Part shown: positions 9,624-45,700 of the stretch, one piece after another
Numbering within the stretch: the first letter of the stretch is position 1
How the letters are laid out: the number at the start of each line of letters is the position of its first letter
Source of the DNA: Dictyostelium discoideum
Lineage: Eukaryota
Direction: 5' to 3'
Assembly: GCA_000004695.1 (NCBI GenBank)
Contig: CM000151.3
Location: 1,280,001-1,344,000, forward strand
DNA length: 64,000 nucleotides
Position numbers and translations under genes: made by a program
Notes under the pieces: model-generated
What the model was told of the DNA's origin: nothing
The model's input: only the letters and a program-made list of their open reading frames with translations
Database searches by the model: none

Positions 9624-10468
9624 TTTATTTTATCTTTTTATTTTATATATAATGTGGTTTATTTTTATTATTGTTGTTGTAATTGAAATAAATAAATAAA
9701 TAAATTAATTAATTAAATTCAACCTTTTTTTTTTTTTAACAAATAAAATTTATAAAAAAAAAAAAAAAATTTAAAATAAATAAAAGAAAATTTTTTTTAA
9801 TTTTAAAAAAAAAAAATAATTGTTGTTCTTGAAATGGTAAATTATATGTGTGTTTGATTGTGTGTTGTGTGTGGTGTGGGTTTTTATTGTATGTGCCTTT
9901 ATGAGGGTTGATGTGATTTTTTTTTTTTTTTCTATTAAAAAAAAATTGTGTGAAGTTTGGGTAGTGGTGAGTTATTCTTTTTTTTTATTTATTTATTTGT
10001 TCTTTATCTCTTTTTTTGACTTTTGACTTTTTTTCTTTTTTTCTTTCTTTTTATTTATTTTCCCTATAACAATATTATCACTATTGCCTAATTATTTTTC
10101 TAATTATTTGTTATTATTTTATTATATTATAATAAATTTTTTTTTAGAACCACTTTTTTTTTTACCACATGGGGTATTGTAATTAAACAAAATATGGGTT
10201 TTGTATAAAAAAAACTCCAAAAAAAAAAAAAAAAAAAAAAACTAAAAAAAAAAAAAAATTTATAAAAAAAAAAAAAAATAAAAAAATAAAAAAATTGATA
10301 AAAAAAAAATTTCAAATCAAATTTCTGTCTTCCAAAAAAAGAAATTATTAATTTTCTGGAAAACCAATGGATTCATGGTTTTCTTTTTTTTTTTTTTTTT
10401 TTTTTTTATTGTTTCATTTTTAGAGATTTTATTTTATTTATACAATTAATTTTTTTTTCTTTTTTTTT

Positions 10469-18774: not shown

Positions 18775-19620
18775 ATGAATAATTTTATGATAAAATGTGT
18801 ATCAAATGCAGTATTCAAATTTATAGGAGTTAGAAGGTTAGCAAGTTTTGCGGCTCTATCAATTGGTCCCAAAATAGTAGATCATACAGTAAATAAAGTG
18901 ACAGGAGGTTTAATACCTGTTCAAGTTGTTAGATTACTTCGTACCTCTTTATCTTATGCTCCATTGGCTGTTGTAATGGGTACAAGTGGTGCAACAGGTG
19001 GTGTTGCTCCAGTTGCTTCTGCTGTTACCTATTATATTTTAGTTCAAGTTTCGGAAAGTAAGATATTATTATAAATTCAATATTATTATTAATAATAATA
19101 ATAATAATAATTAATAATACCATTTTATAATTTATACTAATAAAATATATTATTAGCATTATGTATGTTATTAGTCAGAGAAGCAACAGGTGCAACATTT
19201 AGAGGGGTAAAATATGTAGTATCGTCAACCTACAATACAATTACAGGTAAAGATAGAAGAGAAGAAAAAATGGTAGATATAGAGTTAGAAAGTTGGGTAT
19301 TTTTAGAAAAAGAGGAAATTCCAGTTGAAGAATTTTCACCTGAAAAGGTAAAAGAGGTTGAAAACTATTTTAATTCAATAGAATTAGATAGATTAGGTGT
19401 AGATAGTGAAAATAATAATCATATGAATGACAATAACAATAACAACAACATTATAAATAATGGCCAACAAATTAATATAAATAACAGTTATTATCAAGCA
19501 AAAGATCCAAAAGAAATGGAAGAAATTTTAACAAATTTAAATAACAATATAAAACTAGATAAATTAGAAAAAACAAATATTAGAAGTAGTAATAATCTCG
19601 ATGATTTCATTCTATTGTAA
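18775..19620 (+). CDS. small membrane protein with Gly/Ala-rich (glycine-zipper-like) hydrophobic segments and an Asn-rich C-terminus; two exons, about 18775..19057 and 19157..19620
   Basis: ATG 18775, donor A|GTAAGA about 19058, acceptor TATTAG about 19156. The hydrophobic segments read LASFAALSIGPKIV and LAVVMGTSGATGGVAPVASAVTYYILV; exon 2 reads LCMLLVREATGATFRGVKYVVSS..., then an acidic/Asn tail to TAA 19618-19620. I cannot assign a family; a FUN14-like domain is one possibility. Confidence 0.45.
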
Positions 19621-20205
19621 AATTAAAACTAAAAAAAAAAAAAAAAACGACTGTAACCAAGCATTTACATGTATATAATAACAATTTAAAATAAAAATTA
19701 TAATAATAATAAAATATTATTATCCAATACCTTTTTTTTATTTATCTTTTTTTTTTTAAACAACTAATGACCCATCTAAAAAAAACAGATTTAAATTTAT
19801 AAACCTGTTTTTTTTTTTAACAACGAATGATGCCCATAAATTTAAAATGAACCAGACGAACCAACTTACTGCTCACTTAAACCCTAAAATACATAATCTA
19901 TAATTAATATTAGTAACAACAAATACCTCAACCCAAAAAAAAAAAAAAAAAAAAAGAGTCCAAAAACCAAAAAAAATTAAAAAACATATTATCATTATTA
20001 TTTTTTTATTTTTTTTTCGTATTAATTAATATGCAGGTGCGTCTTTTTTGTTTTGTTGGTTATGTGGCAACAGAATGTTAAAAAAAAGGTTAACAATTAA
20101 AACAATTTTCTGATAAATATCTAGTCATTTATTTTTTTTTTTTAAAAAAAAACAGATCCCATATCATAAAAACAACTCGATTTCAAAAGTAAAAAAAAAA
20201 AAAAA

Positions 20206-20254
20206 GATTCACAGGTCGGAAAATAATAAAAAAAGGTTCACAGGTCGGAAAAAA
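20206..20254 (+). promoter_or_regulatory. direct repeat GATTCACAGGTCGGAAAA, two copies 29 bp apart, about 180 bp upstream of the family-gene ATG; a candidate family-specific cis element
   Basis: gattcacaggtcggaaaataataaaaaaaggttcacaggtcggaaaaaa is a relatively GC-rich island in an A/T-only promoter. The same pair occurs in inverted orientation at about 25695-25745. A single variant copy gattcacaagtcagaaaa sits at the same relative position upstream of copy 4 (37601-37618). A related agagcattcacag/agagcattcaaag pair lies upstream of copy 3 (about 31293-31335). Confidence 0.35.
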
Positions 20255-20432
20255 TAAAGATATTTTCTCACAGCAGAAGATATTTTTTTTTTTTTGGGTA
20301 TTCTTTTCATTTTTTTTTTTATTTTTTGGTATTCTTTTCATTTTTTTTTTTATCTGGTAATAATATGATGTGTCATTTTTTTTTTTTTTTTTCATTTTGT
20401 TTTTTAATTATTTTTTAGTATATAGATTTTAA

Positions 20433-20831
20433 ATGGGGAAATTTTTTATTTGTTTTTTGATGTGTTCAATGTTTTTTTGTTTTGTTAATTGTGTTGAACC
20501 TCCAAAAGATGAATATGACTGTTTCTTTAATTTTATTACAAAAATAAACCTTTTTTCATTCTTTCCAAAAATCAATGCCACTCACTATAATTTTTGTTCA
20601 GTTAATATTAAGTGTGATGAAGTTACTGGAACAATAAAAGAGTTTGTATTTTATTTTTATTTTATTTTATTTTATTTTATTTTATTTTTTATATTATTTT
20701 AACAAACTTTATTAAATATAATTTATTTTATAGTGTTACTATATTAAACACATTAACTAGTGGATATAACAACCAAGCAATACTGCCAACAGATTTAGCG
20801 TGTCTTCCTAATTTTAGTAGAATGTATGTAT

Positions 20832-20868
<37 letters not shown>

Positions 20869-23800
20869 CCTATTAAACGTCATAATATAATATATAGATT
20901 TTTACAAAATTTAAATATTTCAAAAGAACTTGTATTTTATCAATTCCCACAAACAATTTATGAAGTAACATATAATTATGAAAACTATGCTTGTAGTCCA
21001 ATTGATCAAAAATTACCTGATATTCCATCTTTGTAAGTATACGGATATATTTTTTTTTTTTTTTTTTTTTTTGATTAAATAAAAAAGTAATCTAAAATAA
21101 TATTTTATTTTTAGTTTTTTTTATTGTAAATCCATTTCCGGAACAAGAATAAAAATGTCACACATAATGAATCAGAGACTTTTTAATTTAAAATATAGTT
21201 ACGTATATTTTGAAAACGATGTTATTGCAACGCATAATATCTCAATGGTTGCGTTTACAGCAACTTCATTAAACTTTGCAGACTTTTCAAACTTTAAGAG
21301 TTTACAAACTTTCTCAATGTATTTTAATCAAGATTTTGTAATTTCATCAATCCAAAACTTTTCAACAATTATTGCAAATTCCATACAAATAGAGCACGAC
21401 ACAGGTATTTTGTATCCATTTTATATACCATTAAATAATTTCACTCAATTACTAGCAATAACCGCACTTTTTGAAAAACCAATTTCATTAATAAATCTTT
21501 CAACTTATGGTTTTAAGCAACTGCATCTTTTGCATGTTGGAAACGAGTTTAATTTAAATGGTGAGATTCCGATAATTCCACCTCATGATTGCTATTTTTT
21601 AGTATACTATGGCAATTTTAATGTATTTCCAAATTTTTCAATTATTACAGGATCTTTTGGTTCTTATCAGTCAAACTTTTCAATTACTTTACCACCATAT
21701 TCAGGTAAAGGTGCAATGATCTCTTTAATAAACAATAACCTTATTGGAACAATTGATGAATCTTGGTGTAATGTCAATTTGGTAATTTATAAAAATAAAT
21801 TAACAGGGTATGTTTAAAAAAATATATAAATTGCGCAAATTTAACTATCTAACTTTTTTTTTTTTTTCAATTAATAGAAAAATACCTTCATGTTTTACTT
21901 GTTATTTTTCAGATCCCTCTATATTTAATTATTTTTCTGGTAACCAATTTACAAACTACAACCAATCAATTGGATGTTCTGAATTTGCACCAAGATTTCA
22001 ATTATTGGACATTTCAACCAAAACTTTCCGTGTAACAGGTATTAATATAGGTTTTTATCCTAATAATTGGTTATTAAACTCAGTTGATTCCCCATATAGT
22101 ACTCAAATTATCTCAATGGGGTATGAATATGTTGTGATGTACTTATTTTCAATAATACCAAGTCCAAAATACTTTAATGTTACATTTGTGCATCCAGCAC
22201 CATCACGAACAATATCATTCCCTCTTGGTTATCAATTCCCAAATCCAACAGGTATAAAAATAACAGCAAATCAATTAATAATTACAGGTGAACTATTTTC
22301 AAGTTATATGGGTTACTCAGATCAATCAGTCCAATTTGAAGAAACATCTACTAATTGTACAATAAAAGATGGTAATTTCTTTAATATAACTTGTGAATTT
22401 GTACCATCATCTATTTCTACCTTAACATACCCAACAATCATTAAAATTAAAAATGATAATTTAACACCTAAATCAAATTCCATGTCCTAATAATTGCGAT
22501 GATATTAATAATAGTATTTGTGATCTTTCTAAGGGTATTTGTGTCCCACCTTGTAAAAATGATTGTGGAATATTCGGTGAATGTAATGATCAAACTGGAG
22601 AGTGTGATTGTGATTCAAACCATCAAGGTCCAAATTGTTCTGTACCATTTAAACAATGTCCAACAGGTTCAAATTCTTTAATTTGTAGTAGTGCAGATTA
22701 CAATATGTGTAACAATCAAACTGGTATTTGTACATGTTCTCCTAGTCAACAAGGTCAAAATTGTTCATTACCATTTAAACAATGTCCAGTTGGCTCGGAT
22801 TCTTTAATATGTAGTGGAGGTAATAACAATTGTAATAATCAAACAGGTATTTGTTATTGTGATTCAAACCATCAAGGATCTGCTTGTTCAATACCATTTA
22901 AACAATGTCCAGTTGGTTTGGATTCTTTAATTTGTAGTGGAGGTGACAATAATTGTAATAATCAAACTGGTGTTTGTACTTGTTCTCCAAGTCAACAAGG
23001 CTCTGATTGCTCATTACCATTTAAACAATGCCCAGTTGGTTTAGATTCATTAGTATGTAGTGGAGATTACAACAACTGTAATAATCAAACAGGTATTTGT
23101 TATTGTGATATTAAATTTACAAATGATGATTGTTCAAAACCAAATCAATATATATCATCTGTTTCACCATCGACCACAAATGGAGGTGAGGCATCATTTT
23201 TTGGTTGGTTTGGAGATATTCATTCAAATCCATCATTATTAATTGGAGCTCAACAATGTCAACCAATAACATATAATTCTTCAATCGAAATTAGATGTAT
23301 TGCACCACCAGGTAATGGAGTATATGATATTACTTTTAATCAAAATGATATCATGTATCAATTAAGAAATGGTTATAGTTACCTTGAAATTTTTAAAAAT
23401 TGTCCAAACAATTGTACAAATTCAAATCAAGGAAATTGCAATACTTCAAATGGAGAATGTAATTGTATAAACAATTACTATTCATTCGATTGTAGTTTAA
23501 AAAGAAATAATAACACAGGTGGTAACAATGGTGGTAACAATGGTGGTAACAATGGTGGTAACAATGGTGGTAATCCCTCGATTGATCCATCAACAGGTGG
23601 AACTAATATTACTGATAATCAAGTAAATTTCCAAATTTATTTTAAAAATTTATTTGAAATTGATTTCAACGGTAATATTGTAAATCAATATTCATTGCAA
23701 AGTAATTGGACTCTCAATAAGACTAAAGATTCACAAGAAAATAATATTTACAAATTAACACAAATCATTCAACAATCATGTGAAATTGTAACATTGATAG

Positions 23801-24396
23801 AAGAAGTTTCAACATCTAAACAATATTCATTTGCAGGCTCAACATTCACATTAGATGCTGGTTCAATTAAATTAACAATTTCGATATCAAATTATATTTA
23901 TAATAGCAGTTTAAATACATTACAACTTCAATTAATATCATCAGTAGATAATGAAAGTGAAGGATCAGATTGTAATATTAAACAAGTTTCTACAAATGAA
24001 ACCAATACATCCTCATTTAAATATATTAAAATTTCAAAAGATAATAGAGTCCTTCAAGGTAGATTCATTAATCAAATACTATCAGATGGAAGACCAACAT
24101 ATTTATCAATTGATGTTAATAATAATGGTAATTCAGTAATTGCAACATTAAATCTACCACATTTTGTAAACCAATCAATTATCGATCCAGACTTTTCAGT
24201 TTTACTCGAAACTGATTTTAAATCGGAATGTGACAATAAAAACTCTCGTAAATGGTTAATACCAGTTGCTGTGGCAGTCCCAATCGTTGGTCTTTGTTCT
24301 ATTGGAGTGATTGTATATTTTTTATATAGAAAACATTTTGTTGAAATACCTCTAAAAGTTAAATTACAAAGTATTGGAAATAAAATAAATAAATAA
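20433..24396 (+). pseudogene. copy 1 of the tandem LRR-EGF-IPT transmembrane receptor-like gene family; five-exon structure intact at the 5' end but with a frameshifting indel in exon 5 (about 22458-22466)
   Basis: Exons lie at about 20433..20641 (signal peptide MGKFFICFLMCSMFFCFVNC), 20733..20826, 20880..21030, 21115..21807 (LRR-like: NLSTYGFKQLHLLHVGNEFNLNGEIPIIPP...LINNNLIGTIDESWCNVNLVIYKNKLTG) and 21878 onward. Relative to copies 2-5 the sequence gataatttaATAAGAAGAGTAATTGTCAATCCATTAATTGGACAActaaatcaa is replaced by gataatttaACACctaaatcaa. This is a net loss of 32 nt, so the frame terminates at 22490 and the EGF/IPT/TM part (ORF 22705..24396) continues in another frame. Confidence 0.6.
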
Positions 24397-25348
24397 AAAA
24401 CCTTTACATTAAAATGTAAATCGTCCCTCATATTTTATTTTATATTTTAATTTATTTGTAAATCATTTGAAAAAAAAAAAAAAGAAAAAAAACAGACTGG
24501 ATACATACTTTAGTTTTTATATTTTATATTATTTTGTATTTTTGGTTGAGTTTCTTTTTTTAAATACTAAATTCATATTAAAAATTAAATCATTTGATTT
24601 TTTTTATTTTAAGTGTATATATTATTATTATAATTATTATTATTTTATTTTATTTTTTTCGGATTAAACTTTGATAAAAAAAATGTAATAAATATGAATT
24701 TTGTGTGTAATTTTTTTTTTTTTTACACAAGCAATACAAAACAAAGCTTTTTTTCCAATTTTTTTTATATTTGTCGAGCAATAAAAAAAAAAAAAAAAAG
24801 CAGCTGAAAATCAAATAAAATTAAAAAAATAATTATTTTTTTTCCTCGTCTTGCTTGATTAATATTCAGATATGACTCAATAATTATCTTTTTTTTTTAT
24901 GAAATTTTGTTTTTATTTTTTTTTCTCCTCTTGCTTAATTGATATGCAGATATGACCTAATAAGAAGAGATATTGAATTTTTTTCCATAGATTGTATCAC
25001 CAAAAGAATCTATTTATGTTTGATTTGGAAAGACACTAAATTTAAAAAAAAAAAAAAAATAATTATTAAGTGCAAAAAAAAAAGATATTATAACAAAAAA
25101 AAAAAAAAAAATGGAAAAAAAAATCAAAAAAAAAAAAATCTTTTTTTATGTGCGACAACTATTTATTTTTTAAAAATGATATGGGATCTGTTTTTTTTTT
25201 TTTTTTTTTTTTAAAAAAATCTTTTTTTTTAAAATATTTGAGGTTTTTTACGAAACATTTTTTTTTATATTTTATTTTCACAAAATAAAAAATAAGCCAA
25301 AAAATACCCATTGCGTTATAATATGATGTGGCTTAAAAGAATTTTTTT

Positions 25349-25384
<36 letters not shown>

Positions 25385-25416
25385 TTTTTTAATTTTTATT
25401 TAGTATATAGATTTTA

Positions 25417-25866
25417 TATTTTTGTAATAAAATTAAAGAAACAGTCATATTCATCTTTTGGAGGTTCAACACAATTAACAAAACAAAAAAACATTGAACA
25501 CATCAAAAAACAAATAAAAAATTTCCCCATTTAAAATCTATATACTAAAAAATAATTAAAAAACAAAATGAAAAAAAAAAAAAAAAATGACACATCATAT
25601 TATTACCAGATAAAAAAAAAAATGAAAAGAATACCAAAAAATAAAAAAAAAAATGAAAAGAATACCCAAAAAAAAAAAAATATCTTCTGCTGTGAGAAAA
25701 TATCTTTATTTTTTCCGACCTGTGAACCTTTTTTTATTATTTTCCGACCTGTGAATCTTTTTTTTTTTTTTTACTTTTGAAATCGAGTTGTTTTTATGAT
25801 ATGGGATCTGTTTTTTTTTAAAAAAAAAAAATAAATGACTAGATATTTATCAGAAAATTGTTTTAA
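25417..25866 (-). repeat. 450-bp inverted duplicate of the family promoter plus the 5' half of exon 1 (reverse complement of about 20070..20545), inserted head-to-head into copy 2
   Basis: 25440-25545 is the exact reverse complement of the copy-1 start (atggggaaattttttatttgttttttgatgtgttcaatgtttttttgttttgttaattgtgttgaacctccaaaagatgaatatgactgtttc). 25560-25866 is the reverse complement of 20070-20400, including the ttcacaggtcggaaaa pair. The spurious poly-Lys ORF 25568..25780 (+) is identical to 20183..20395 (-). The left junction is a 33-bp inverted repeat: gttttttaatt.ttt.tagtatatagatttta forward at 25384-25416 and reversed at 25545-25578. Forward exon-1 sequence resumes at 25867 (aaatcaatgccactcac) with about 25 bp lost. 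Confidence 0.8.
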
Positions 25867-26142
25867 TTGTTAAAAATCAATGCCACTCACTATAATTTTT
25901 GTTCAGGTAATATTAAGTGTGATGAAGTTACTGGAACAATAAAAGAGTTTGTATTTTATTTTTATTTTTTATTTTTTATTTTTTATATTTTTTATATTTT
26001 TTATATTATTTTAACAAACTTTATTAAATATAATTTATTTTTTAGTGTTACTATATTAAACACCTTAATTAGTGGATATAATAACCAATCAATATTGCCA
26101 ACAGATTTAGCGTGTCTTCCTAATTTTAGTAGGATGTATGTA

Positions 26143-26174
<32 letters not shown>

Positions 26175-29100
26175 TTCCCATTAAACGTCATAATATAATA
26201 TATAGATTTTTACAAAATTTAAATATTTCAAAAGAACTTGTATTTTATCAATTCCCACAAACAATTTATGATGTAACATATAATTATGAAAACTATGCTT
26301 GTAGTCCAATTGATCAAAAATTACCTGATATTCCAACTTTGTAAGTATATGGATATATATTTTTTTTTGACTAAATAAAAAAGTAATCTAAAATAATATT
26401 TTATTTTTAGTAATTTTAATTGTAAATCCATTTCCGGAACAACAATAAAAATATCGCACATAATGAAACAGAGAGTTTTTAATTTAAAATATAGTTACGT
26501 ATATTTTGAAAATGATGTTATTGCAACTCATAATATCTCAATGTCTACATTTACAGCAACTTCATTAAACTTTGCAGACTTTTCAAACTTTCAGAGTTTA
26601 CAAACTATCTATATATATTTTAATCAAGATTTTGTTATTTCATCAATCCAAAACTTTTCAACCATTAAATCAAATTCCCTACATATAGAGCACGACACAG
26701 GTATTTTGTATCCATTTTATATACCATTAAATAATTCCACTCAGTTGCTATCAATGGCCGCACTTTTTGAAAAACCAATTTCATTAATAAATCTTTCAAC
26801 TTATGGTTTTAAGCAACTGCATCTTTTGCATGTTGGAAACGAGTTTAATTTAAATGGTGAGATTCCGATAATTCCACCTCTTAGTTGCGATTTTTTAATA
26901 TTCTATGGCAATTTTAATGTATTTCCAAATTTTTCAATTATTACAGGATCTTTTAGTTCTTATCAGTCAAACTTTTCAATTGCTTTACCACCATATTCAG
27001 GTAAAGGTGCAATGGTCTCTCTAATAAACAATAACCTTTTTGGAACAATTGATGAATCTTGGTGCAATGTCAATTTGGTAATTTATAATAATAAATTAAC
27101 AGGGTATGTTTAAAAAAATATAAAATTAATAATTTATTCAAATTTAAACATATCTAACTTATTTTTTTATAATAAAAAGAAAAATACCTTCATGTTTTAC
27201 TTGTTATTTTTCAGTCGCATCTTTTTTTAATTATTTTTCTGGTAACCAATTTACAAACTACAACCAATCAATTGGATGCTCTGAATTTGCACCAAGATTT
27301 CAATTATTAGACATTTCAACCAAAACTTTCCGTGTAACAGGTATTAATATAGGTTTTAATTCTAGATATTGGTTATTAAACTCAGTTGACTTTCCATATA
27401 GTACCAACGTTATCTCAATGGGATATGAATATGTTGTGATGTACTTATTTGCAATAATACCTAATCCAAAATACTTTAATGTTACATTTGTGCATCCAGC
27501 ACCATCACGAACAATATACTTCCCTCTTGGTGATCAATTCCCAAATCCAACCGGTATTAAAATAACATCAAATCAATTAATAATTACAGGTGAATTATTT
27601 TCAAGTTATATGGGTTACTCAAATCAATCAGTCCAATTTGAAGAAACATCTACTAATTGTACAATAAAAGATGGTAATTTCTTTAATATAACTTGTGAAT
27701 TTGTACCATCATCTATTTCTACCTTAACATACCCAACAATCATTAAAATTAAAAATGATAATTTAATAAGAAGAGTAATTGTCAATCCATTAATTGGACA
27801 ACTAAATCAAATTCCATGTCCTAATAATTGCGATGATATTAGTAATAGTATTTGTGATCTTTCTCAGGGTATTTGTGTCAAATCTTGTAAAAATGATTGT
27901 GGAATATTCGGTGAATGTAATGATCAAACTGGAGAATGTGATTGTGATTCAAATCATCAAGGTCCAAATTGTTCTATACCATTTATGCAATGTCCAACAG
28001 GTTCAAATTCTTTAATTTGTAGTAGTGCAGATTACAATATGTGTAACAATCAAACTGGTATTTGTACATGTTCTCAAAATCAACAAGGTCAAGATTGTTC
28101 ATTACCATTTAAGCAATGTCCAGTTGGTTCAGATTCGTTAATATGCAGTGGAGGTAATAACAATTGTAACAATCAAACAGGTGTTTGTACTTGTTCTTCA
28201 AGTCAACAAGGTCAAGATTGCTCATTACCATTTAAACAATGTCCAGTTGGTTTGGATTCGTTAATATGTAGTGGAGGTAATAACAATTGTAACAATCAAA
28301 CTGGTATTTGTTATTGCGACAGTAAATTTACTAATATTGACTGTTCAAAACCAAATCAATATATATCATCTGTTTCACCATCAAATACAAATGGAGGTGA
28401 AGCATCATTTTTTGGTTGGTTTGGAGATATTCATTCAAATCCATCATTATTAATTGGAAATCAACAATGTCAACCAATTACATATAATTCTTCAATCGAA
28501 ATTAGATGTATTGCACCACCAGGTAATGGAGTATATGATATTACTTTTAATCAAAATGATATCATGTATAAATTAAGAAATGGTTATAGCTACCTCGAAA
28601 TTTTTAAAAATTGTCCAAACAATTGTACAAATTCAAATCAAGGAAATTGCAATACTTCAAATGGAGAATGTAATTGTATAAACAATTATTACTCATTCGA
28701 TTGTAGTTTAAAAAGAAATAATAATACAGGTGGTAACAATGGTGGTAATCCCTCGATTGATCCATCAACAGGTGGAACTAATATTACTGATAATCAAGTA
28801 AATTTCCAAATTTATTTTAAAAATTTATTTGAAATCGATTTCAACGGTAATATTGTAAATCAATATTCATTACAAAGTAATTGGACTCTCAATAAGACTA
28901 AAGATTCACAAGAAAATAATATTTATAAATTAACACAAATCATTCAACAATCATGTGAAATTATAACATTGATAGAAGAAGTTTCAACATCTAAACAATA
29001 TTCATTTGCAGGCTCAACATTCACATTAGATGCTGGTTCAATTAAATTAACAATTTCAATATCAAATTATATTTATAAAAGCAGTTTAAATACATTACAA

Positions 29101-29568
29101 CTTCAATTAATATCATCAGTAGATAATGAAAATGAAGGATCAGATTGTAATATTAAACAAGTTTCTACAAATGAAACCAATACATCCTCATTTAAATATA
29201 TTAAAATTTCAAAAGATAATAGAGTCCTTCAAGGTAGATTCATTAATCAAATACTATCAGATGGAAGACCAACATATTTATCAATTGATGTTAATAATAA
29301 TGGTAATTCAGTAATTGCAACATTAAATCTACCACATTTTGTAAATCAATCAATTATCGATCCAGACTTTTCAGTTTTACTCGAAACTGATTTTAAATCG
29401 GAATGTGACAATAAAAACTCTCGTAAATGGTTAATACCAGTTGCTGTGGCAGTCCCAATCGTTGGTCTTTGTTCTATTGGAGTGATTGTATATTTTTTAT
29501 ATAGAAAACATTTTATTGAAATACCTCTAAAAGTAAAATTAGCAAGTATTGGAAATAAAACAAAATAA
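25867..29568 (+). pseudogene. copy 2 of the LRR-EGF-IPT TM family; 5'-disrupted (no ATG or signal peptide on this strand) but exons 2-5 are otherwise intact (exon 5 about 27180..29568)
   Basis: Exon 1 starts mid-codon at the inversion breakpoint, and the ORF-track M at 25867 is TTG. Downstream exons parallel the other copies: exon 4 about 26420..27112, exon 5 encoding four EGF-like 41-aa modules, IPT, C-terminal domain and TM (WLIPVAVAVPIVGLCSIGVIVYFLY), with TAA at 29566-29568. It could still be expressed from an unseen upstream ATG, so the pseudogene call is provisional. Confidence 0.5.
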
Positions 29569-29840
29569 ATAAATAAAAAACTTTTACATTAAAAAGTAAA
29601 ATTGTTCCTATTATTTTATTTTTTAATTTATTTGTAAATATCATTTAATAGATTAAGTTTTTATTTTTATTTTTTTTTTTTTTTTTTTTTGTTTTTATTT
29701 TTATTTTTAGGTTTAATTAATTAATTAATTTTCATTTATAAAATCATTATAAAATGAAACTTTATTTATACTTTATTAATTTTTAATATAATAAAATACT
29801 GATAATACAAATATTTATTTTTTGATGCAAGTTAACATTT

Positions 29841-30637
29841 TTATAATCTATTTGAGCTTGATGGGATTGAAACTTTGCCAGAACAAGTATCAAAACCATC
29901 AACTTCAGGGCAATCCATAATTGAGAGTGTTTTTTTATCAATACATAATGCAATAGTTGATAATTTATTATTATCACATTGCATAACTGGTTGGCCACCA
30001 AATTGACTATTAATTGCACTTGAAATTGAATCGGATTCATAGGTATCTTGATCTGATGGGTAAATATTTTCTGAAATTAATGCAGATGTTAAATTATGTT
30101 GAGTATATAATTTGAGACCAGCAACAAAATAATCATGTTCATTTGAAATTGGTGAACCTGCTACAACTGCGCATGTACCTATAGATAAATAAATAAATTA
30201 ATTGGTTAAATTATTTATTATTTTTTATTTATTATTTATTATTTATTATTTATTATTTATTATTATTTATTTTTAATATTGAATATTAAGTGTACACATA
30301 CCATGTTTTTTATATTCACTTGTCCAGAATAAATCATTATCTTCAGTTAATGAAATCCAATCAACATTTAATTGATCTTCTAAATCTGAAATTTCACCTA
30401 AATCAAATGATGGACCAGTACAGAAAGCTGGATAGGAGTTGTTTCTGTCGTTTGGCCATAATCCATGAATTGTAAATGCTTCTCTTTCTTTATTTTCAAT
30501 ACATTTGCTTTCACTACAATATGAATAAATCCATTGTTGAACGAATAAATAGTAATCAAAATCACCCGGCGTTGTATCTGATGAACCTGATGATGAATCC
30601 CATCTAGTTTCGTTTGAATTTACTATTTTAAATTATA

Positions 30638-31305: not shown

Positions 31306-31860
31306 ATTCACAGAAAAAATAAAAAAAAAAGAGCATTCAAAGTAAAAAAAAAAAAAAAAAAAATGGAAATAAAATGAAAAAATAGCAAAGATTAAATTTT
31401 AATTTTTTTTTTTTTTTTTTTTTTTGTTTTTAACATAAAGATGAAAAATAATCATTTCAGATTTTTATTTTTCAAAGGTCATTGACGTCACCAAAAAAAA
31501 AAAAGGAAGGAGCTGTGCATTGAGGACTTTGGTTAGATATTAAAAAAAAAAAAAATCAAATCTTTTTATTCCCAATATAAATATCTCAATATTTTTATTT
31601 TTTTTTTATTATTTTTTTTTTTTTTTTTTTTTTTTTTTCAAAAATCAGATTACCGTATCATTTTCAAATAAAACCAATTTAATTATCAAAATAAATTATT
31701 AAAAAAAAAAATATGTTTTTTTTTCCCTGTTGGAGGATATTTTTTTTTGTCAACAATAAAAAAAAAAAAAAAACCCATTAATTATTTTCATATTTTTCAT
31801 TTTGTTTTTTTTTTTTCCTAATATTTTTTTTTTGATTTTAAGTTAATACTTAGATTTTAA

Positions 31861-37793: not shown

Positions 37794-38213
37794 ATGGTTA
37801 ATTTTTTTATTTGTTTTTTGATGTGTTCAATGTTTTTTTGTTATATTAATTGCATTGAACCTCCAGTAGATGAATATAATTGTTTCTTTGATTTTATTAC
37901 AAAAATAAACCTTTTTTCATTCTATCCAAATACCAATGCTACTCACTATAATTTTTGCACAAATAATATTGTATGTGATGGAGTTACTGGAACAATAAAA
38001 GAGTATGTATTTTATTTTATTTTATTTTATTTTATTTTATTTTATTTTATTTTATTTTATTTTATTTTATTTTATTTTTTTTTTTTTTTTAACTAACTTT
38101 ATTAAATTTATTTTAGTATTACTATATTAAACACCTTAACTAGTGGATATAATAACCAATCAATATTACCAACAGACTTAGCGTGTCTTCCTAATTTTAA
38201 TAGAATGTAGGTA

Positions 38214-42779: not shown

Positions 42780-45700
42780 ATGGGGAAATTTATTATTTGT
42801 TTTTTGTTGTGTTCAATGTTTTTTTGTTATGTTAATTGCATTGAACCTCCAATAGATGAATATAATTGTTTCCTAAATTTTATTACAAAAATAAACCTTT
42901 TTTCATTATTTCCAAAAACCAATGCCACTCACTATGATTTTTGCACAGGATATATAAAGTGTGATGGAGTTACTGGAACAATAAAAGAGTATGTATTTTA
43001 TTATTTTATTTTTTTTATATTATTTTAACTAACTTTATTAAATTTTTTATTAAAGTGTAACTATTTTAAACACTTTAAAAAGTGGATATAATAACCAATC
43101 GATTTTAGCAACAGACTTAGTGTGCCTTCCTAATTTAAATAGAATGTATGTGTATTTAAAACAATGAAATAAAATAAAATTGCTATTAAACATGTTTATT
43201 ATACTTTTATAGAAATCTCCAAAATCTAAATATATCTAAACAGCTTGTTTTTTATGAATTCCCACAAAAAATTGGTCAAGTAACATATAATTATGGAGAC
43301 TATGAGTGTAGTCCAATTGATCAAAAACTACCTGAAATTCCATCTTTGTAAGTTTGGCAAAATCCTTTTTTTTTCTTTTTTTTAAAAATTAAAATTATGG
43401 TATTCTAAAATAATATTTTATTTTTAGTTATTTTTATTGTAAATCCATTTCTGGAACAACATTTAAAATCTCATACATAACAAAACAGACAATCTTTTAT
43501 TTTGGAGATAGTTTTGTACATTTCGAAAATGATGTTCTTGAGACTCATAATATCTCAATGGTTTCATTTACAGCATATTCGTTAAACTTTGCTGACTTTT
43601 CAAATTTTAAAGGTTTGGGATTTTTCAAGATGACTTTCAATCAAGATTTTATTATTTCATCAATACAAAACTATTCAACCATTAAATCAAATTCCATACA
43701 AATTGAGCACGACACAGATTTTCCCTATCCATTTTATATACCAATAAATAATTTCACTCAAAGATTATCAGTATATGCACGTTTTGAAAAACCAAGTTCA
43801 ATGATAGATCTCTCAAGTTTAGTTTATTCGGATTTATCTCTTTCGGGAGTAGGCGACAAGTTTAATTTTAATGGTGAGATTCCGATAATTCCACCACCTG
43901 GTTGCAATTTTATAATAATGCATGGTAATTTTAATGTATTTCCAAATTTTACATATTTTACAGGTGGCTTTACTTCTTTTCAGTCAAACTTTTCAATATC
44001 CTTGCCATCCTATTCAGGTAAAAATACAATGTTTTCAATGATAAACAATAACTTGATTGGAACAATTGATGAATCTTGGTGCAATGTCAATTTGATAATT
44101 TATAATAATAAATTAACAGGGTATGTTTAATTAAAAATTAAAATAAAAATTAATTATATTAAAAAATAAATAAATATAAAAATAAACAAATTTAACTTTA
44201 TCTAACTTTTTTTTAATAATAGAAAAATACCTACATGTTTTACTTGTTATTTTTCGGATCCTGCGGTTTATACTTCTTTTTCTGGTAACCAATTTACAAA
44301 CTACAACCAATCAATTGGGTGTTCTGAATTTGCACCAAGATTTGAATTGATGGATTTTTCAACTAAAACTTTCCGTGTAACAGGTATTAATATAGGCTTT
44401 ACTCCTATGAATTGGTTATTAAACTCAGTTTACTTTCCTTATAGTTTCCAAGATATCTCAACGGGATATGAATATGTTGTGTCGTATTTATTTTCAATAA
44501 TACCTAATCCAAAATACTTTAATGTTACATTTGCTCATCCAGAACCATCACAAACAATATACTTCCCTCTTGGTGATCAATTACCAAATCCAACCGGTAT
44601 TAAAATAACATCAAATCAATTATTAATTACAGGTGAATTATTTTCAAGTTATATGGGTTACTCAAATCAATCAGTCCAATTTGAAGAATCATCTACTAAT
44701 TGTACAATAAAATATGGTAATTTCTTTAATATAACTTGTGAATTTGTACCATCATCTATTTCTACCTTAACATACCCAACAATCATTAAACTTAAAAATG
44801 ATAATTTAATAAGAAGAGTTATTGTCAATCCATTAATTGGACAACTAAATCAAATTCCATGTCCAAATAATTGCGATGATCTTAATAATAGTATTTGTGA
44901 TCTTAATCAAGGTATTTGTATCAGTTGTGTAGATGATTGTGGAATATTCGGTGAATGTAATTTTCGAACCAGAACCTGTGATTGTGATTCAAATCATCAA
45001 GGTCCAAATTGTTCTATACCATTTATACAATGTCCAACAGGTTTAAATTCTTTAATTTGTAGTAGTGTAGATTATAATATGTGTAACAATAAAACTGGTG
45101 TTTGTACTTGTTCTCCAAATCAACAAGGTCAAGATTGTTCATTACCATTTAAACAATGCCCAGTTGGTTTGTATTCGTTAATATGCAGTGGAGGTAATAA
45201 CAATTGTAACAATCAAACAGGTATTTGTTATTGTGATAGTAAATTTATAAATGATGATTGTTCAAAACCAAATCAATATATATCATCTGTTTCACCATCA
45301 ACCTCAAATGGAGGTGAAGCATCATTTTTTGGTTGGTTTGGAGATATTCATTCAAATCCATCATTATTAATTGGAAATCAACAATGTCAACCAATTACAT
45401 ATAATTCTTCAATCGAAATTAGATGTATTGCACCACCAGGTAATGGAGTATATGATATTACTTTTAATCAAAATGATATCATGTATCAATTAAGAAATGG
45501 TTACAGCTATCTTGAAATTTTTAAAAAATGTCCCAACAATTGTACAAATTCAAATCAAGGAAATTGTAATACTTCAAATGGAGAATGTAATTGTATAAAC
45601 AATTATTACTCATTCGATTGTAGTTTAAAAAGAAATAATAATACAGGTGGTAACAATGGTGGTAATCCATCAATCGATCCATCAACAGGTGGGACTAATA

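Follow-up and report, generated by a model that had tools for sequence, protein, structure and literature searches.

An inverted patch of paralogous promoter and coding sequence at the start of a ComC-like gene in Dictyostelium discoideum

How did a gene in a tandem array come to have its start codon replaced by a backward-facing stretch of promoter and signal-peptide sequence, and is this arrangement real? Both questions are raised by the 5' end of DDB_G0272334, which we examined within 64,000 nucleotides of chromosome 2 of the D. discoideum AX4 reference (the window; G+C content 23.7%). A first-pass annotation of this DNA had proposed that an inverted duplication disrupts the gene, and we find the same: the start of DDB_G0272334 contains the reverse complement of a segment of the preceding gene copy, matching at 457 of 457 positions. 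From comparison of gene copies and strains, the event is very probably real, derived, templated by that preceding copy and disabling for DDB_G0272334.

The ComC-like array and the inverted patch

Self-BLAST of the window reveals five tandem, same-strand copies of ComC-like EGF/transmembrane genes:

Copy 1: start near 20433, forward strand
Copy 2 (DDB_G0272334): start near 25416, forward strand
Copy 3 (DDB_G0272336): start near 31860, forward strand
Copy 4: start near 37794, forward strand
Copy 5 (DDB_G0272366): start near 42790, forward strand

The array proteins combine an LRR_ComC domain, two ComC beta-sandwich domains, EGF repeats, a ComC_SSD domain and a C-terminal transmembrane segment. 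The annotated proteins P0002 and P0003 (the latter being DDB_G0272334) pass the Pfam curated cut-offs for LRR_ComC (301 and 286 bits, respectively) and ComC_SSD (245 and 243 bits), and both also match Beta-sand_ComC_1st/2nd and EGF_2 at these cut-offs. By its Pfam domain set, the copy-2 product is a member of the ComC-like EGF-domain transmembrane proteins, and in a protein search the large copy-2 ORF at 27418-29568 is 100% identical to AX4 DDB_G0272334. The opposite strand carries an RNase T2 gene in the interval between copy 2 and copy 3. Over their aligned bodies, copies 1 and 2 share ~91% identity, and their longest exact match in direct orientation spans 213 nt. No papers were found in a literature search for DDB_G0272334, DDB_G0272336, DDB_G0272366 and DDB_G0272332.

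The start of copy 2 and its counterpart in copy 1 are made up of the following features:

20090-20546, forward strand: donor segment in copy 1, consisting of 343 bp upstream of the ATG (20433) and codons 1-38; intact
25318-25416, forward strand: native proximal promoter and 5' leader of copy 2, retained; orthologous to about 9870-9963 of the OT3A locus L001
25416/25417: left junction, …TAGATTTTA / TATTTTTGTAAT…, microhomology 0 nt
25417-25873, reverse strand: inverted copy-2 patch, matching the reverse complement of 20090-20546 exactly
25414-25530, reverse strand: orphan mini-ORF MGKFFICFLMCSMFFCFVNCVEPPKDEYDCFFNFITKI with its stop, 38 codons (MGKFF…ITKI) giving a signal peptide plus 18 residues
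25399-25549: imperfect palindrome made by the event, with perfect 18-bp arms (25399-25416 and 25532-25549) and a 115-nt spacer
25872-25874: right junction, …GTTTTAATTGTTAA / AAATCAATGCC…, microhomology 2 nt (AA)
25874-25946, forward strand: what is left of copy-2 exon 1, from codon 46 (KINATHYNFCSGNIKCDEVTGTIK); a GT donor follows at 25947

The exact match between patch and donor stops at both ends of the 457 nt and extends no further in either direction. No other exact inverted repeat of the window reaches 100 nt, and among exact repeats of every kind it is the longest (the next is 390 nt long, direct and coding). It lies in homopolymer-rich non-coding DNA; an inverted identity of this length is far beyond chance. 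The upstream part of the donor carries two TTCACAGGTCGGAAAA motifs and one CAGATCCCATATCA motif, and the TTCACAGGTCGGAAAA pair is present in the patch, where a motif pair had been placed by the first-pass annotation. The donor copy itself, 5.3 kb upstream of the patch, is unaltered.

The first-pass annotation had also let the forward upstream sequence of copy 2 run until one base before the expected ATG, which is borne out (it ends at 25416), and had traced the inverted segment to copy 1, which stands, with its size corrected from 450 to 457 bp. The right-hand boundary has to be redrawn: the patch carries codons 1-38 instead of the first 31, and exon 1 resumes at 25874 with codon 46 (K46-I-N-A-T-H-Y), not at codon 40 with ~25 bp lost, so that 20-22 nt (codons 39-45) are missing in either orientation. 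The two patch bases at 25872-25873 (AA) could equally have come from the donor or from the target.

Upstream of copy 2 itself, homology to the patch ends at about 60-170 nt and does not reach its distal ~290 nt; the only matches of these distal 286 nt are to the promoter of copy 1 and to its OT3A orthologue (L001 4182-4572, 84%). Judging from these alignments, the donor of the patch is paralogue copy 1 and not copy 2's own promoter. Copy 1 is colinear with its OT3A orthologue (window 17029-23109 matches L001 1054-7217), and because it sits at this ancestral, colinear position, copying ran from copy 1 to copy 2.

The palindrome at the left junction is less regular than the perfect 33-bp arms and 128-bp spacer originally described. 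The 33-bp arms match at 31 of 33 positions, of which 18 bp are perfect, and the spacer (25417-25531) is 115 nt; extended to 59 nt (25361-25419 and 25529-25587), the arms are 92% complementary. Its predicted DNA fold has a z score of -4.8, and a search of 19500-26500 against Rfam (E<=1) gave no match, so no known RNA family accounts for it. The native promoter, which ends at 25416, is oriented rightward and the inverted one (25531-25873) leftward, so that the two promoters, taken before to face outward, are convergent over the mini-exon. By this geometry, the palindrome is best read as a by-product of a paralogous promoter set head-on against the native one.

The ancestral state in other strains

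The orthologue genomes matched by protein search come from BioProject PRJNA1300491, the source of de novo Nanopore and Illumina assemblies of D. discoideum AX2-214, CR116C and OT3A and of sister taxa (Holland et al. 2025, PMC12745789). The loci compared are L001 (OT3A), L002 (CR116C), L003 and L004 (both in GCA_054883475.1, locus tag ACTFIT) and L005 (a D. cf. discoideum isolate). We infer that locus tag ACTFIW is OT3A and ACTFIR is CR116C by setting locus-tag counts against the protein counts in PMC12745789. ACTFIT is taken to be AX2-214 from its near-identity to the window and its locus-tag counts, and because the other two D. discoideum isolates are called genetically diverged (Holland et al. 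2025, PMC12745789).

OT3A has an intact copy-2 orthologue. L001 9058-9966 aligns in forward orientation with window 24479-25419 and is followed in L001 by ATG GGT AAA … and further codons, those of the signal peptide included, as far as …TTTCCAAAAATCAATGCC, at which point window 25874 picks up. The D. cf. discoideum isolate has the same intact forward ATG and signal peptide at the homologous site (L005). Since both keep a forward exon 1, the patched state of AX4 and AX2 is derived. In reaching it, AX4 copy 2 lost 135-137 bp (the base before the ATG and codons 1-45) and gained 455-457 bp, the 2-nt uncertainty arising because AA is common to donor and target. Taken together, the alignments show a non-reciprocal repair, in which a lesion at the 5' end of copy 2 was filled with an inverted copy of the copy-1 promoter and codons 1-38.

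Candidate mechanisms and rival explanations

We favour, with moderate confidence, a BIR/MMBIR-type strand switch on a paralogous template. Under this model, an end broken at the copy-2 start, or a fork collapsed there, would pair with the homeologous proximal promoter of copy 1 over ~60-100 nt at ~92% identity (the sequences that now form the palindrome arms); its 3' end would switch to the opposite strand 115 nt ahead and copy ~457 nt backwards, and the copied strand would rejoin copy 2 through the AA microhomology. The copy-1-type promoter would now fire toward the native copy-2 promoter across the orphan 38-codon ORF. Such a strand switch would account for the paralogous position of the patch, its short spacer and its orientation. 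Templated insertion by FoSTeS/MMBIR, and by BIR template switching, has been reported. The copy-2 patch resembles FoSTeS/MMBIR insertions in that a nearby (5.3 kb) intact template is copied non-reciprocally with a small deletion at the breakpoint and with little or no homology at the junctions. It differs from them in its location, the corresponding site of a tandem paralogue, which suggests pairing guided by homeology and not by pure microhomology; in addition, MMBIR usually leaves no blunt junction, whereas the left junction here is blunt.

The junction microhomologies (0 nt on the left and 2 nt on the right) are compatible with template switching and with fragment capture alike. A tentative alternative, which we consider rather unlikely, is that a double-strand break in copy-2 exon 1 lost ~135 bp and was closed by end joining around a free 455-457-bp fragment of copy 1, inserted inverted by chance and perhaps delimited by a short inverted repeat at its ends. 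Capture of fragments at double-strand breaks by NHEJ is known from yeast mitochondrial DNA and Ty cDNA, and REMI in Dictyostelium relies on end joining. The copy-2 patch shares with such captures a short insert of arbitrary orientation, junction homology of 0-2 nt and a small target deletion, and one blunt junction beside one with 2 nt of microhomology is typical of end joining. The repeat that might have delimited the fragment flanks the donor:

20082-20091 (AAAAAAGGTT) and 20547-20556 (AACCTTTTTT): perfect 10-bp inverted repeat bracketing the donor segment

If the AA is given to the target, the copied unit becomes exactly the "loop" (20092-20546) between the 10-bp arms, and a comparable bracket is found around 0.36% of 20,000 random 457-nt segments of the window in a post hoc test. 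The repeat may hint at what set the limits of the copied unit, and the strand-switch model does not explain it; its arms are used at neither junction, and a 10-bp A/T-rich stem around a 455-nt loop would be thermodynamically weak. Capture would also require a separate release event while copy 1 stays intact, so that the source of the fragment would have to be a sister chromatid or an intermediate made by copying. Finally, it leaves unexplained why the insert landed at exactly the paralogous position: random capture does not predict that the insert should be the equivalent region of the adjacent paralogue.

Fold-back inversions and inverted duplications with short spacers occur in yeast and in human constitutional and cancer genomes, and fold-back or template-switch repair was the origin first suggested for this locus. 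Of these two, template switching is still a good candidate, and fold-back is contradicted by the complete identity of the patch to copy 1. The version to be weighed has copy 2 fold back on its own promoter and exon 1, followed by gene conversion from copy 1. The order of forward sequence, 115-nt spacer and near reverse complement, with its palindromic junction, is indeed that of a fold-back inversion, yet the inverted arm is copy 1 at all 457 positions and differs from the promoter that copy 2 retains (31/33 in the arms), so that the self-identity test fails. The arms come from two paralogues, 92% alike over 59 nt and unrelated thereafter, and the inverted part covers only 457 bp before forward sequence resumes; nothing is duplicated on the scale of a chromosome, and there is no terminal deletion. 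The model would also call for two events within a very short time, and conversion could not have spread and halted exactly at both junctions because the sequence upstream of copy 2 is non-homologous to the distal ~290 nt of the patch. We therefore regard self fold-back as most improbable.

Other routes were tried and rejected. An in-place inversion fails since copy 2's own promoter is still there in forward orientation, standard ectopic gene conversion would have resulted in direct orientation, and every version of a template switch through AAAAAAGGTT/AACCTTTTTT predicts that ~20 nt (…CCTTTTTTCATTCTTTCCAA…) should be kept at the right junction, where they are absent.

The patch could also have been introduced in error when the 2005 Sanger reference was cloned or assembled, through backward placement in copy 2 of a read or clone from copy 1. 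Its 100% identity to copy 1 and its size, near that of one Sanger read, would fit such an error, as would the error-prone appearance of the AX4 reference just upstream of the junction (25074-25366). Against it, both junctions recur in GCA_054883475.1, a de novo Nanopore and Illumina assembly that is colinear with window 8751-45609 at 99.7% identity, the differences being nearly all in homopolymer lengths. The junction strings TAGATTTTATATTTTTGTAATAAAATTAAAG and GTTTTAATTGTTAAAAATCAATGCCACTC are found there exactly (L003 3562 and 4012; L004 16615 and 17065), and both are absent from L001 (OT3A) and L002 (CR116C). At 25074-25366, GCA_054883475.1 differs from AX4 by ~10 single bases and a 16-nt difference in a T run, the rest of the 37 kb being near-identical, and it agrees there with OT3A, for example in …CTTTATTGATTTT… versus AX4 …CTTAAAAGAATTTT…. 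This agreement with OT3A where AX4 differs, together with a contig that is not reference-shaped (3.6 Mb versus 8.5 Mb for the AX4 chromosome record), indicates that the assembly is independent of the reference. The AX4 bases in this interval, beside a 43-T run and the palindrome, are probably Sanger base-call errors. Independent reads in forward orientation had been named as what would refute the inversion; instead, the independent long-read assembly has the same inverted junctions, and an artefact is extremely improbable.

AX2 and AX3/AX4 were derived separately from NC4. If both AX4 and AX2-214 carry the patch, the rearrangement was most probably already in NC4 and was inherited from it; if ACTFIT were instead AX4, the sequence would be validated but NC4 inheritance would not. 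In the AX2 assembly, the patch has two 1-nt homopolymer differences from its own copy-1 donor (L004 16874 and 16963, equivalent to window 25668 and 25758), which could reflect slippage after the event or long-read polishing error.

Lastly, it is scarcely credible that the patch is a functional, programmed element, whether a promoter switch that can invert or a regulatory module evolved for bidirectional or antisense action. A whole promoter with its paired motifs does lie in opposite orientation, but the two ends of the segment (TATTTTTGTAAT… and …TTTTAATTGTTAA) do not form an inverted repeat, the patch is tied to a 135-137-bp coding deletion of bases that other strains keep, and OT3A, CR116C and D. 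cf. discoideum all lack it, with one orientation only seen. The patch is a further example of a type of mutation already known and does not represent a new system.

Consequences for copy 2, its gene models and the array

On its own strand, copy 2 has neither a start codon nor a signal peptide, and its remaining reading frame is intact. The gene strand contains no in-frame ATG upstream of codon 46, and the sole in-frame start is the TTG at 25867, in agreement with the first reading of the ORF. Residues 34-1200 of the OT3A protein map colinearly to the forward strand of copy 2 with no disabling stops, and residues 1-30 map to the reverse strand only; the in-frame N-terminal signal peptide present in paralogues and orthologues is thus missing from AX4 copy 2. 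The signal peptide survives in the mini-ORF that had been predicted on the opposite strand and that is indeed found there, closed by a TAA created at the left junction. Because the ATG and the signal peptide are gone, copy 2 has presumably lost its function, and it is likely a recent null allele.

The AX4 reference annotates DDB_G0272334 as an intact 1146-aa protein, with a first exon that falls inside the patch:

25653-25750, forward strand: exon 1 of the DDB_G0272334 reference model (MKRIPKKKKISSAVRKYLYFFRPVNLFLLFSDL), wholly within the inverted promoter and antisense to it

The N-terminus of this model is the ORF at 25653-25754, whereas the orthologues begin with the signal peptide. A chance GT within the reverse complement of the TTCACAGG motif is spliced to exon 2, bypassing the true exon-1 remainder, and the first exon of the model appears to be a spurious product of annotation. 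In the AX2 annotation, copies 1 and 2 are fused into one gene of 2243 aa. Both gene models are symptoms of the copy-2 lesion. Exact look-ups of the 38-aa mini-ORF, the 50-aa and 92-aa junction ORFs, the 716-aa body ORF and P0003 returned nothing on record. At the other end of the gene (about 29540-29900), the model P0003 reads …GVILDGIETLPEQVSKPSTSGQSIIES…, as opposed to the conserved …GVIVYFLYRKHFIEIPLKVKLASIGNKTK before the stop in the ORF and in all orthologues, and this odd C-terminus is probably a second mis-splice in the model.

Copy 1 shows a lesion of its own further downstream. At 22464-22490 it lacks 32 bp that both copy 2 and the OT3A orthologue of copy 1 contain, which causes a frameshift and a stop at 22490, and its sequence at these positions is identical in the AX2 assembly. 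Copy 1 is thus probably a pseudogene too in the laboratory lineage, in which case two of the five array members (copies 1 and 2) would be dead in the standard laboratory lineage and intact in wild strains.

The value of these results is mainly practical, as they correct the reference annotation of DDB_G0272334 for work on the ComC-like family in AX2 and AX4 and for comparative genomics. They also provide a clean, polarised case, with known donor, target and ancestral state, of a repair patch that was templated by a paralogue and inserted inverted, in a genome extremely rich in A+T.

Dictyostelium has Dicer, RdRP and Argonaute genes, and the convergent geometry raises the idea that the patch acts as a natural RNAi trigger that silences the ComC-like array in NC4-derived strains. 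Double-stranded RNA would form from the convergent native copy-2 and inverted copy-1 promoters, or by read-through of copy 1 into the patch 5.3 kb downstream, and its identity would be 100% to copy 1 (5' leader and codons of the signal peptide) and 85-95% to the other members. Resting on the geometry and the known RNAi genes, this idea is very unlikely to be correct.

A structurally dynamic multigene locus of Dictyostelium has been described in tgrBC, termed a "hypermutable hotspot" (Holland et al. 2025, PMC12745789). The array studied here is likewise a tandem cell-surface gene family with duplications, deletions and inversions between strains; it differs in that its family is ComC-like and not Tgr, in its location on chromosome 2 and in that no link to allorecognition is known. 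The ComC-like array is thus a second cell-surface gene array, besides tgrBC, that is structurally variable between strains.

Several minor observations concern the promoters and the rest of the array. The motif TGATATGGGATCTG occurs at 20153-20166 (reverse strand), 25177-25190 (forward) and 25797-25810 (forward), and the native promoters of copies 1 and 2 carry it in opposite orientations, suggesting a promoter element that acts either way round. The TTCACAGGTCGGAAAA motif is found twice before copy 1 and, as a variant with 2 mismatches, once before copy 4. Array copy number and integrity vary among AX4/AX2, OT3A and CR116C. In CR116C (L002 1384-3022), exon 1 is fused in frame (…THYN/CKQCVVG…) to the EGF-repeat region by an internal deletion of ~2.3 kb, and the gene is annotated with 400 aa. 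The number of 123-nt tandem units that encode the EGF repeats (22565-23233 in copy 1, 27899-28444 in copy 2 and equivalents in copies 3-5) also differs, both between copies and between strains.
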